Shown: positions 8,407 to 9,382 of the stretch, in pieces
How the letters are laid out: each line of letters begins with the position of its first letter
Position numbering within the stretch: the stretch's first letter is position 1
Source: a virus
Lineage: Duplodnaviria > Heunggongvirae > Uroviricota > Caudoviricetes
Virus record (IMG/VR): IMGVR_UViG_2684622541_000015
DNA length: 45,369 nucleotides
Strand: one strand, 5' to 3'
The notes under the pieces: model-generated
The model's input: only the letters and a program-made list of their open reading frames with translations
Database searches by the model: none
What the model was told of the DNA's origin: nothing
Position numbers and translations under genes: made by a program

Positions 8407-9059
8407 TGAGTAATAAATATTGCCAGGCGCTGGTGGAGCTGCGGAACAAACCAGCCCATGAACTGAAGGAAGTGGGCGATCAGTGGCGCACGCCGGATAA
8501 CATTTTCTGGGGAATTAACACCCTGTTTGGCCCGTTTGTTCTGGATCTGTTCACTGATGGTGATAACGCCAAATGTGCCGCTTATTACACTGCGGAAGAC
8601 AACGCGCTGGCGCATGACTGGTCTGAACGTCTTGCGGAGCTTAAAGGTGCTGCCTTTGGTAATCCCCCGTACAGCCGCGCCAGTCAGCATGAAGGGCAAT
8701 ACATCACCGGCATGCGTTACATCATGAAACATGCCAGTGCCATGCGTGATAAGGGCGGACGCTATGTTTTCCTGATCAAAGCTGCCACCAGCGAAGTGTG
8801 GTGGCCGGAAGATGCAGATCATATTGCTTTTATTCGCGGGCGTATTGGTTTTGAACTGCCTGCCTGGTTTATCCCGAAGGACGAGAAGCAGGTGCCGACA
8901 GGCGCTTTCTTCGCTGGTGCTATTGCTGTTTTCGACAAGACCTGGAAGGGACCGGCAATCAGCTACATCGGGCGCGATGAACTTGAGGCATGTGGTGAGG
9001 CGTTTCTGGCGCAGGTTCGCCAGCAGGCGGAAAAACTGGTCAGGGAGATGGCGGCATGA
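8406..9059 (+). CDS. phage N6-adenine DNA methyltransferase (Dam-like phage family)
   Basis: Contains the NPPY motif (AAFGNPPYSR) typical of N6A methyltransferases. ATG overlaps the upstream stop (TAATG). Confidence 0.6.
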   Translation: MSNKYCQALVELRNKPAHELKEVGDQWRTPDNIFWGINTLFGPFVLDLFTDGDNAKCAAYYTAEDNALAHDWSERLAELKGAAFGNPPYSRASQHEGQYITGMRYIMKHASAMRDKGGRYVFLIKAATSEVWWPEDADHIAFIRGRIGFELPAWFIPKDEKQVPTGAFFAGAIAVFDKTWKGPAISYIGRDELEACGEAFLAQVRQQAEKLVREMAA

Positions 9060-9382
9060 CGACGTTAACTCAATGCCAGCAGCAGGTGCTGGATATGCTG
9101 ATTTCTTACCAGAAAGAACGTGGCTTCCCGCCAACCAATCAGGAGGTGGCAACCATGCTGGGATACCGTTCAGTGAATGCAGCGGTGGAACATCTTCGCG
9201 CACTGGAGAAAAAAGGCGTCATCACGATAAAGCGTGGCATGGCCCGGGGTATCACTCTTCATACCGCGGTGAAGGACGACGACAGCGAGGCGGTCGGGAT
9301 TATCCGCTCACTGCTTGCCGGTGAGGAAAACGCCAGGCTGCGTGCAACCCACTGGTTACATGAGAGAGGCCTGAAAGTATGA
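9056..9382 (+). CDS. LexA DNA-binding-domain homolog lacking the S24 peptidase domain
   Basis: 108 aa. N-terminal ~72 aa align in my reading with the LexA winged-HTH domain (QQQVLD...G.PPT..E.A..LG.RS.NA...HL.AL..KGVI....G..RGI.L). No Ser/Lys peptidase domain follows. Confidence 0.55.
   Translation: [108 protein letters not shown]

Follow-up and report, generated by a model that had tools for sequence, protein, structure and literature searches.

By the textbook account, the SOS response, prophage induction and the release of Shiga toxin are all triggered by cleavage of LexA. Plasmids carry PsiB, an anti-SOS factor of mobile elements. ClpXP is said to recognise the ...VAA C-terminus of cleaved LexA, as Neher et al. 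reportedly described in 2003. In E. coli LexA, CTGT is read out mainly by residues S39, N41, A42 and E45 (review, PMC11442139). The isolated N-terminal domain of LexA binds DNA 10-1000 times more weakly; the N-terminal fragment is nevertheless still able to repress, and full SOS derepression needs its removal by ClpXP (PMC11442139). The Bacillus tectivirus GIL01 encodes a phage-borne protein of this kind, gp6, which consists of a LexA domain alone and is produced from an operon under LexA control (Fornelos et al. 2018, PMC6182141). It binds GaCACAnnTGTGaC, a site other than the host box, and acts as an activator of the late promoter (PMC6182141). In the literature searched, it was the only truncated LexA homologue with an experimental characterisation.

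Here we analyse a LexA-like gene of a lambdoid E. coli prophage. Positions refer to the window, which is the whole stretch of 45,369 nucleotides that was analysed. The LexA-like protein is already catalogued, as a member of PHROG 362, as a 'LexA family transcriptional regulator' and as SfV orf42, so that only its function would be new. Full-text literature yielded catalogue mentions only (e.g. pham 237, PMC8136144), and no functional study was found there.

A LexA DNA-binding domain encoded by the prophage

The LexA-like gene occupies positions 9056..9382 of the + strand. It starts with ATG and encodes 108 residues, the reading frame being supported by matches to PF01726 and PHROG 362. These limits and the protein sequence agree with those given in a sequence-only reading of the same DNA. 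In E. coli A14, PGAP names the gene 'LexA repressor' (WP_001610361.1). Residues 1-68 (9056..9259, +) form a predicted LexA-type winged helix-turn-helix according to AF2 secondary structure and Foldseek. PF01726 (LexA_DNA_bind) was the sole Pfam match; it covers residues 1-65 and all 65 profile positions (E=2.1e-19), with 69.5 bits as compared to a cutoff of 23.7. The sequence-only reading had recognised a LexA winged helix-turn-helix and had named a profile search as a way to reveal a different HTH family; Pfam returned only the LexA one.

Comparison with LexA itself, also proposed in that reading, gave consistent results. E. coli LexA was matched by phmmer in the PDB (E~1e-15), and BLASTP aligned the two proteins over 90 residues with 43% identity. 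The AF2 model (pLDDT 84.7) was superimposed by Foldseek on the LexA chain of the 3jso LexA-DNA crystal structure with a rmsd of 1.0 A over 68 residues, at 50% identity. In this model, the recognition helix spans residues 40-52 and the wing carries R64 and G65. All four readout residues, S39, N41, A42 and E45, are the same as in E. coli LexA. Among the unique proteins of clade A, to which the window belongs, S39 and N41 are found in 60/60, A42 in 56/60 and E45 in 57/60, and R64 and G65 of the wing do not vary. Some positions near the readout residues are however changed as compared to LexA: Glu never occurs at position 44 (Val here), Asn replaces R28 and Val replaces P40.

The remainder of LexA is missing. 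No Pfam match to Peptidase_S24 (PF00717) was obtained anywhere in the 108 residues, as the sequence-only reading had anticipated. The protein ends at residue 108 with rusA directly after, and the C-terminal S24/dimerisation domain with its Ser119/Lys156 dyad is absent. Consistently, the protein covers only positions 1-91 of the 203 positions of the lexA equivalog model (NCBIfam TIGR00498), and its whole-protein score of 71.3 bits is below the curated cutoff of 110.95. Judged from its sequence and predicted structure, the protein thus has the DNA-binding domain of LexA and lacks the module for cleavage. A PADLOC defence-system search with the protein gave one weak, meaningless match only.

A conserved two-helix module at the C-terminus

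The last ~36 residues had been regarded as a mere remainder in the sequence-only reading. This view has to be abandoned: the last ~35 residues are a conserved module and not a residual LexA linker. According to AF2 and conservation, residues 74-102 (9275..9361, +) form an amphipathic two-helix hairpin, with predicted helices at residues 74-88 and 93-102 (pLDDT about 90) following a disordered stretch (residues 71-74). Down to 40% identity among relatives, A97 and L101 of the hairpin are invariant, and A93, I82/I83, L86/L87 and W100 are conserved hydrophobic positions. The tail is also included in the full-length match to PHROG 362 ('transcriptional repressor'; E=4.3e-59), in which residues 1-108 align with profile positions 1-106 of 106. 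This PHROG comprises LexA_DNA_bind-only proteins of lambdoid phages, among them SfV orf42 and mEp460 gp46. The hairpin is probably a dimerisation module. Because the lone N-terminal domain of LexA binds DNA so weakly, the activity of the LexA-like protein would hinge on this putative dimerisation.

In HMMER and BLASTP alignments, the sequence 'LLAGE' of the LexA-like protein falls onto 'VAAGE' of LexA, which places A88-G89 opposite the cleavage site A84-G85. Ala-Gly is kept in 54-56/60 close relatives (clade A). It is replaced by AN in Citrobacter and by VG in Salmonella, and by ER, TR, SG, DD or AE in remoter members; the G is retained in only 2/59 proteins of the sister clade (clade B). A conserved LexA Ala-Gly autocleavage site is thus not a character of the family. 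Moreover, A88-G89 lies within a helix predicted at high confidence. The cleavage-site region of LexA is an extended strand-loop. A88-G89 was rejected as a trans-cleavage site since Ala-Gly is lost beyond the close relatives and sits in a predicted helix.

Operon position, distribution and selection

The LexA-like gene is located in the early-right (nin) operon, in the cro-to-Q interval, between dam and rusA. Upstream, the gene of a phage N6-adenine methyltransferase (Dam; 8406..9059, +, PGAP coordinates; PF05869, E=1e-45) shares an ATGA overlap with it, in which the dam stop codon overlaps the LexA-like start codon (9056..9059, +). Downstream, a second ATGA overlap links the LexA-like stop codon to the start of the gene for RusA, a Holliday-junction resolvase (9379..9382, +; rusA, 9379..9768, +; PF05866). 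The LexA-like gene is translationally coupled to dam and to rusA via these two overlaps, which also are the left and right edges of a cassette. Indeed, in lex-minus relatives the dam stop directly overlaps the rusA start. As a cassette, the gene is either cleanly present or cleanly absent, and in the natural lex-minus variants it is dispensable.

The LexA-like gene stands directly 5′ of rusA in 75 of the 80 loci that carry the rusA allele of the window, and the synteny with rusA is held by relatives at 40-50% identity. More generally, rusA is the conserved 3′ neighbour in the short-form clade and in some members of the long-form clade, and the gene has the nin-region placement upstream of rusA / DUF968 / Q. 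A scan of the + strand revealed no sigma70-like promoter upstream of dam or of the LexA-like gene; in the cro-to-Q interval, the sole + strand sigma70-like site is within the KilA-N gene, which is located downstream of the LexA-like gene.

The gene is widespread. It is present in 2,233/5,426 complete E. coli genomes (about 41%) and also in SfV, SfII, mEp460 and Stx2a/Stx2c phages. The protein is 97-99% identical to those of SfV, SfII, mEp460, the cdtI phage and Stx2c phages. With a median dN/dS of 0.10 over 115 pairs, the gene is under purifying selection, and therefore functional. Among relatives, the protein length is maintained at 106-108 aa; together with the start of rusA at the stop codon of the open reading frame and the dN/dS of ~0.1, this argues that the gene is not a truncated pseudogene. 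Frameshifted copies were observed in databases (P0024, P0029, P0055, P0068, P0111).

LexA boxes and the cI-like repressor of the prophage

Two near-consensus LexA boxes with exact CTGT-N8-ACAG motifs, CACTGTATTTGTATACAGTA (42722-42741, -) and AACTGTATGGATAAACAGTG (42750-42769, -), precede a DinI-like gene (42461..42709, -; PF06183, E=1e-19). Their PSSM scores are 23.8 and 21.4, whereas 50 shuffles reached 17.7 at most. They overlap a sigma70-like promoter of the dinI-like gene (-35 at 42773-42768, -10 at 42749-42744). The LexA-boxed dinI gene of the sequence-only reading was therefore recovered, with two perfect boxes in the promoter of a Pfam DinI gene, and these boxes are the most obvious candidate targets of the LexA-like protein on the prophage. 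A third LexA-type box, TACTGTAAAAATAAACAGTG (13651..13670, +; PSSM 22.5), is found at codons 3-9 of a late-region DNA methyltransferase gene and is another candidate target. It also occurs in SfV, in mEp460 and in 48/153 related loci. By PSSM, the three boxes of the window match genuine E. coli boxes in strength.

Between cI and Q, no LexA box was found in the window at PSSM>=10, and the 5100-13700 region showed no notable palindromes beyond the cI operators and terminators. We also counted CTGT-Nx-ACAG and ACAG-Nx-CTGT in the window for x=0-16; no spacing or orientation was enriched except CTGT-N8-ACAG (4 observed, 0.7 expected), and the PSSM rates the exact N8 match at 6138 as weak. A fixed cis-target adjoining the LexA-like gene was thus rejected for the clade of the window, no LexA box, palindrome or promoter-like site being present there.

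The cI-like immunity repressor (YmfK allele; 4478..5152, -; PGAP) has a Peptidase_S24 domain (PF00717, E=1.5e-26) at residues 93-212, with a GDSM motif among its peptide patterns, and the S24-type cI postulated for the prophage is therefore present. By its sequence features, this repressor is the RecA-sensitive switch controlling the operon of the LexA-like gene. The cI gene of related phages has kept an internal LexA box despite the divergence of the linker around it, and all 13 full-length phage records with the box-bearing cI allele (13/13) also have the LexA-like gene. A linkage to the LexA-boxed late methyltransferase was examined and rejected, the methylase being found in 38/103 lex+ loci and absent from 65. 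Within one cI immunity type, at least one strong LexA box occurs in 29/53 lex+ loci as compared to 2/12 lex- loci (Fisher p=0.024), a difference dominated by one inherited box and confounded by shared ancestry.

The sister clade is associated with LexA boxes and dinI

The sister clade (clade B) belongs to the same PHROG 362. A strong near-consensus LexA box is found 430-1100 bp upstream of the gene in 71/80 sister-clade loci, the boxes being of about 28 different sequences. Directly upstream, dinI opens the cassette as its first gene in 67/80 loci; one locus has a RecA C-terminal-domain-like gene in the place of dinI. In part of the clade (L062, L334), orf67 and DUF968 come next after the gene, and rusA is absent. 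A candidate promoter in this clade has the form TTGAAC-17-TACTGT. The LexA boxes and dinI of the sister clade strengthen, at the level of sequence context, the link between the family and SOS. Because E45 is replaced by Leu in 40/59 unique clade-B proteins, the specificity appears to have drifted in part of the family.

Proposed function and alternatives

We propose, with about even confidence, that the protein is a RecA-insensitive LexA surrogate which would re-occupy SOS boxes after host LexA is destroyed. The hairpin would replace the C-terminal domain of LexA as dimerisation surface, so that two heads could bind CTGT-N8-ACAG-type boxes. Made only after inactivation of cI, the protein would appear while host LexA is being destroyed; in the sister clade, it would be made after cleavage of host LexA itself. 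Because it has neither autocleavage nor the ...VAA C-terminus serving as a ClpXP signal, it could go back onto LexA boxes. During lytic growth, LexA-controlled promoters would then be re-silenced, namely those of the dinI-like gene, of other LexA-boxed phage loci and of host SOS genes, as well as LexA-controlled functions of competing elements. The uncoupling of targets from SOS induction, put forward in the sequence-only reading, is one of several possible outcomes. Against the surrogate reading stand the changed E44, R28 and P40, the Leu at E45 in the sister clade and the GIL01 gp6 precedent, as do the weak DNA binding of the lone LexA N-terminal domain, the lack of a LexA box at a fixed position by the gene in the clade of the window, the presence of the LexA-boxed methylase in only 38/103 lex+ loci and the natural lex-minus variants.

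A broader formulation, which we advance tentatively and with somewhat less than even confidence, is that lambdoid Enterobacterales prophages have a protein dedicated to 'SOS re-silencing', namely a LexA head that dimerises with itself, cannot be cleaved and would take over host LexA operators after RecA* has destroyed LexA. Together with dinI, it would make up a LexA-box-controlled negative-feedback cassette in the sister clade, while in the clade of the window it would belong to the early lytic operon. The phage would thereby shut off host SOS functions and its own LexA-controlled accessory genes (dinI-like, methylase, cI-internal box), and LexA-dependent induction of rival prophages would be blocked.

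Four other explanations were weighed. The protein may be a gp6-like phage regulator, its LexA head being retargeted to a phage-specific operator, or having another outcome on LexA-like boxes, so as to activate or time phage genes. We regard this as rather unlikely. The GaCACAnnTGTGaC site and late-promoter activation of GIL01 gp6 provide a precedent, the sister clade likewise lies behind a LexA box, E44, P40 and R28 are unlike LexA, E45 is Leu in 40/59 clade-B proteins, and a new dimerisation module could alter half-site spacing. However, the Q antiterminator just downstream already serves late transcription, and the four direct-readout residues are kept in the clade of the window. Neither a CTGT/ACAG spacing enriched in the window other than N8 nor a conserved palindrome in the linked module was found, and gp6 shows no BLASTP similarity and falls in a different PHROG. 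Less probable still is an accessory DNA-binding factor working with RusA in recombination or replication, with little or no SOS role. In lambda, the small DNA-binding protein NinH adjoins the Rap resolvase in a comparable arrangement. The constancy of rusA (75/80 loci), its translational coupling, the synteny down to 40% identity and upstream neighbours that are DNA methylases or replication proteins argue for such a partnership. Yet part of the sister clade (L062, L334) has no rusA, rusA is also found without the LexA-like gene, and the kept LexA readout residues and the SOS-box/dinI context would be left unexplained.

An action at the protein level seems very improbable, whether as a decoy that an S24 protease acting with RecA* (host LexA, cI or UmuD) would cleave in trans at A88-G89, or as a binder of RecA*, ClpXP or host LexA. 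The alignment of 'LLAGE' with 'VAAGE' and the Ala-Gly of 54-56/60 close relatives are suggestive of a decoy, but the replacements in remoter relatives, with G in 2/59 clade-B proteins, and the predicted helix in place of an extended strand-loop speak against it. Furthermore, LexA dimerises via its C-terminal domain, which the LexA-like protein does not have. Finally, some frameshifted database copies and the dispensability seen in natural variants could be taken as signs of a functionless, decaying remnant of a captured lexA gene. This idea is hardly credible, and the data on selection and conservation effectively refute it: a dN/dS of ~0.1, a kept length, a tail kept at 40% identity, an occurrence among complete E. 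coli genomes of 41% and a precisely maintained translational coupling.

If the surrogate reading is true, the protein is an operator-level anti-SOS device, resistant to RecA* and different in kind from DinI, PsiB and gp7, which target proteins. The length and strength of SOS gene expression would be altered in induced or infected cells, and mutagenic polymerases, colicins, LexA-controlled defence systems and antirepressors of other prophages would be affected. Its presence in Stx2a/Stx2c phages and in about 41% of complete E. coli genomes would make the gene a common modifier, so far overlooked, of SOS dynamics and possibly of Shiga-toxin phage induction. If the protein is gp6-like instead, Gram-negative phages would gain their first example of such a regulator. 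The sister-clade operon, with LexA box, dinI and LexA head, offers a ready-made second system.

Comparison with known systems

With BlaI/MecI and MntR-type repressors, the LexA-like protein shares a winged helix followed by a helical C-terminal region, an architectural analogy only. Whole-model Foldseek searches gave faint matches to 2g9w, 2d45 and 6kta (E~0.02-0.08) with high rmsd and no sequence relationship.

GIL01 gp6 resembles the LexA-like protein in being a phage-encoded LexA DNA-binding domain without S24 protease and, as in the sister clade, in being made once LexA repression lifts. In contrast with the 108-residue, tailed LexA-like protein, gp6 is a tail-less protein of 66 aa and of the Gram-positive LexA type. 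Its promoter is LexA-box-controlled whereas the gene of the window has no box or promoter-like site upstream, the sister clade having a box in 71/80 loci. Best PHROGs are phrog_3502 for gp6 and phrog_362 for the LexA-like protein. BLASTP gave no alignment between the two proteins at E<=100, and a homology was rejected on this basis.

Host E. coli LexA (1lea, 1jhh, 3jso) has a homologous head with about 50% identity over residues 1-68, and S39, N41, A42, E45, R64 and G65 are common to both proteins. The LexA-like protein differs by the loss of the S24 peptidase/dimerisation domain and of the catalytic Ser/Lys, its C-terminus being an unrelated hairpin. Moreover, lexA is a self-regulated chromosomal gene whereas the LexA-like gene is phage-borne and part of a nin operon.

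DinI-like proteins and GIL01 gp7 share with the LexA-like protein a proposed purpose, the SOS response of the host being dampened or reshaped on behalf of the mobile element. These proteins, like PsiB, target RecA* or the LexA protein, whereas the LexA-like protein would target operators. Functionally, the nearest analogues are the N-terminal LexA cleavage fragment 1-84 and the non-cleavable LexA(Ind-) mutants. As compared to the fragment, the LexA-like protein is a selected and presumably stable gene product, with a putative oligomerisation tail and a C-terminus ending in …GLKV.

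The LexA-type head and its C-terminal tail

The ORF at 9056..9382 (+) encodes a protein of 108 residues, identical to the sequence quoted in the sequence-only reading. That reading had described a LexA DNA-binding domain devoid of the S24 peptidase, and all the searches performed bear it out. In Pfam, the sole domain was PF01726 (LexA_DNA_bind), matched over the entire profile by residues 1-65 (E=2.1e-19; 69.5 bits for a cutoff of 23.7), and no match to Peptidase_S24 was found. The NCBIfam lexA equivalog model aligned over positions 1-91 of 203 only, its 71.3 bits staying below the cutoff of 110.95. 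Using the protein as a phmmer query against PDB sequences, E. coli LexA was matched at E~1e-15, and BLASTP gave 43% identity to it over 90 residues. Alignment and profile search both assign its head to the LexA type. In an AF2 model (21-sequence alignment, pLDDT 84.7), residues 6-68 form three helices and a two-strand wing, and Foldseek superposed this head on LexA of the LexA-DNA crystal 3jso at 1.0 Å over 68 residues with 50% identity. The head-only architecture is confirmed, far above chance.

Recognition of CTGT by E. coli LexA relies chiefly on direct readout by S39, N41, A42 and E45, and mutating these residues changes its specificity (review, PMC11442139). The window protein has the LexA residue at each of these positions, which are retained in 60, 60, 56 and 57, respectively, of the 60 unique proteins of its clade; R64, G65 and I66 of the wing never vary in this clade. 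Some positions next to the readout residues differ from LexA, with Val for E44, Val for P40 and Asn for R28; position 44 is never Glu among the 60 proteins.

In the AF2 model, residues 71-74 are disordered and are followed by helices 74-88 and 93-102 (pLDDT ~90). Extended HMMER and BLASTP alignments placed 'LLAGE' of this tail on the LexA cleavage site 'VAAGE'. This equivalence was rejected because the segment is predicted to be helical and AG varies among relatives: it is replaced by AN in Citrobacter, by VG in Salmonella and, among relatives sharing 40-50% identity, by ER, TR, SG, DD or AE, and its Gly is kept in only 2 of 59 proteins of the sister clade. Conservation instead follows an amphipathic pattern, with I82/I83 and L86/L87 in helix 1 and A93, A97, W100 and L101 in helix 2, A97 and L101 being invariant. 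The tail is a conserved module rather than a remnant. Operator binding by the LexA N-terminal domain alone is weaker than that of the dimer by a factor of 10-1000 (PMC11442139). Since the conserved hairpin replaces the LexA dimerisation domain, dimerisation would be its simplest role. Public data also contain single-chain proteins carrying a tandem pair of LexA_DNA_bind domains without S24 (P0132, P0134, P0146, P0148, P0153 and others), possibly a covalent 'pseudo-dimer' answer to the same problem.

Gene setting, expression and spread

The lambdoid prophage is integrated at dusA, and nucleotides 1 to 25 kb of the window match E. coli A14 (NZ_CP028760.1) at 100% identity. When the PGAP coordinates of A14 are converted to those of the window, the offset is 2000 for the left end but 2120 for the dinI-like gene, so that the two differ by ~120 bp somewhere past 25000. 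The LexA-head gene lies between two ATGA overlaps on the + strand, its start with the dam stop (9056-9059) and its stop with the rusA start (9379-9382). In five related loci (L266, L314, L320, L322 and L324) it is precisely missing and the dam stop directly overlaps the rusA start (GGCATGAAGCTG). The gene is therefore cleanly present or absent, as if by excision or insertion between the two overlaps.

A promoter scan found no + strand sigma70-like promoter upstream of dam or of the LexA-head gene; from cro to Q, the single such site falls within KilA-N, further downstream. The LexA-head gene is thus expected to be expressed delayed-early, as part of the rightward operon under cI control. As the SfV record annotates a putative dam promoter, expression in lysogens is also possible. 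About 100 bp past the Q antiterminator gene, 12464-12489 contains a perfect stem of 10 bp and then a run of T (AAAAACCCGC...GCGGGTTTTT), in the position expected of the late-operon terminator tR'.

The family is PHROG 362, 'transcriptional repressor', and pham 237 of the Stx-phage pangenome (PMC8136144). The gene was found in 2,233 of 5,426 complete E. coli genomes, with at most 4 copies per genome, and in 59 phage records including SfV (as orf42, 'unknown'), SfII, SfIV, mEp460, the cdtI phage, 1720a-02, 15 Stx2c phages and Stx2a_1447/WGPS2. Among species-level genome matches, the full architecture was confined to Enterobacterales (Shigella, Citrobacter, Leclercia, Kosakonia, Buttiauxella, Klebsiella), the other matches being genuine lexA genes.

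LexA boxes in the window and in related phages

LexA boxes were searched for with a PSSM of our own reconstruction, based on 20 E. coli boxes from the literature; as a control, it was run on 16 genuine lexA genes and detected an upstream box for 14 of them. Three candidate sites in the window scored 21-24, whereas no score above 17.7 was obtained in 50 shuffles. Two of them, at 42722-42741 and 42750-42769, occupy the spacer and start region of a minus-strand TTGACA-18-AAAAAT promoter just 5' of a Pfam DinI gene (42461-42709). With the LexA-head protein and an S24-domain cI-like gene (4478-5152, -), this boxed gene makes three prophage elements touching the SOS circuit, as had been correctly proposed. 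Shortly downstream of this LexA-controlled gene lie a UG17-class reverse transcriptase (40339-41715, -; PADLOC E=1e-158) and a SLATT membrane effector associated with it (41687-42238, -). They form a DRT-type anti-phage pair and have their own promoter-like site (42429-42400, -).

The third site (TACTGTAAAAATAAACAGTG, 13651-13670, PSSM 22.5) is near-consensus and covers codons 3-9 of a late-region N6/N4 DNA methyltransferase gene (13643-14695). No promoter-like site was found just 5' of it; an identical box is present in SfV, mEp460 and 48 of 153 related IMG/VR loci. A roadblock, an internal promoter and a coding coincidence are all candidate explanations; a tie between this boxed methylase and the LexA-head gene was not supported. 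At least one strong LexA box was found in 29 of 53 loci with the LexA-head gene versus 2 of 12 without it (p=0.024), a comparison confounded by descent.

Some relatives (10765-10784 in L130; also L108, L143, L147 and L266) carry a strong box (TACTGTATTTATGAACAGTG) in the rusA/KilA-N intergenic region, which suggests LexA control of a KilA-N/antirepressor-like gene that immediately follows the LexA-head/rusA pair. The window's junction is only 19 bp long and has no box. Related phages also have a near-consensus box within the cI coding sequence (L103, 5546-5565; L002, 836-855; mEp460, 31970-31989), at codons ~70-77 of the interdomain linker. Two cI alleles 71% identical to each other have the same CTGT/ACAG arms and TA flanks despite a different spacer and a diverged linker on either side, which suggests that the DNA site itself is under selection. 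All 13 full-length phage records with the box-bearing allele also have the LexA-head gene; this is linkage rather than proof, the records sharing an early-region block. The window's own cI allele has no internal box.

The sister clade

Sister-clade proteins also belong to PHROG 362 and share the tail; they are ~40% identical to the window protein, with an N-terminal extension of ~30 residues (132-165 aa in total). The cassette that carries them is seen in L062 (9306-10512), L334 (513-1718), L007 (5560-6608), L332 (4242-5602) and L335-L414, and their setting proved strikingly regular in a survey of 80 IMG/VR loci. A strong LexA box lies 430-1100 bp upstream in 71 of the 80, with ~28 distinct box sequences. 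The order is LexA box (overlapping a TTGAAC/TTGATA-17-TACTGT promoter), dinI, an ~80-aa orf (phrog_1813, unknown), LexA head, orf67 (phrog_1212, unknown), (rusA), DUF968 and Q, the cassette standing directly upstream of DUF968 and Q. The first gene is dinI in 67 of the 80 loci; in locus L332, a 95-aa RecA C-terminal-domain-like protein takes its place. From this layout, the sister clade is probably switched on by LexA cleavage itself, alongside a RecA* modulator. Because some of these phages, like L007, have a short cI without S24 domain, the cassette may contribute to induction. Independently of sequence similarity, this setting links the family to the SOS circuit.

Possible function and comparison with known systems

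We give about an even chance to the protein being a RecA-insensitive LexA surrogate. It would dimerise via its tail, bind CTGT-type boxes and appear exactly while host LexA is destroyed, so that LexA-controlled promoters of the phage, the host and competing elements would be silenced again. The main rival, a possible but distinctly less probable one, is a regulator resembling gp6 of the Bacillus tectivirus GIL01; that 66-aa LexA head recognizes another palindrome and serves as an activator of the late promoter (PMC6182141). In the sister clade, 40 of 59 proteins have Leu in place of E45, so specificity can drift within the family. However, gp6 belongs to another PHROG and has no detectable similarity to the LexA-head protein, Q is already present in the phages concerned, and our search yielded no alternative site.

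The gene was found in 75 of 80 loci with the window's rusA allele, and rusA still lies 3' of it in relatives at 40-50% identity; a DNA-binding accessory linked to RusA is nonetheless unlikely in our judgement. A protein-level decoy or trans-cleavage substrate seems more doubtful again. Median dN/dS is 0.10 against 115 close homologues, with values of 0.19-0.43 against distant ones, and we regard a decaying remnant as highly improbable.

The family is a good experimental target on three counts: it is prevalent, it occurs in Shiga-toxin phages, and its sister clade has a clean SOS-box/dinI operon. A full-text literature search, with most subscription journals outside its scope, found no functional work on the protein.

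The N-terminal fragment of LexA still represses, and full SOS induction requires its removal by ClpXP (PMC11442139). A RecA-insensitive surrogate would fit this behaviour. The ClpX signal of cleaved LexA is reportedly its new …VAA C-terminus, as described by Neher and colleagues in 2003; unlike that fragment, the LexA-head protein does not end in …VAA. The family is already catalogued and GIL01 gp6 is the one characterised precedent for a head-only architecture; new here, with a function that is itself putative, are a distinct lineage, an added dimerisation-like tail and lambdoid hosts.
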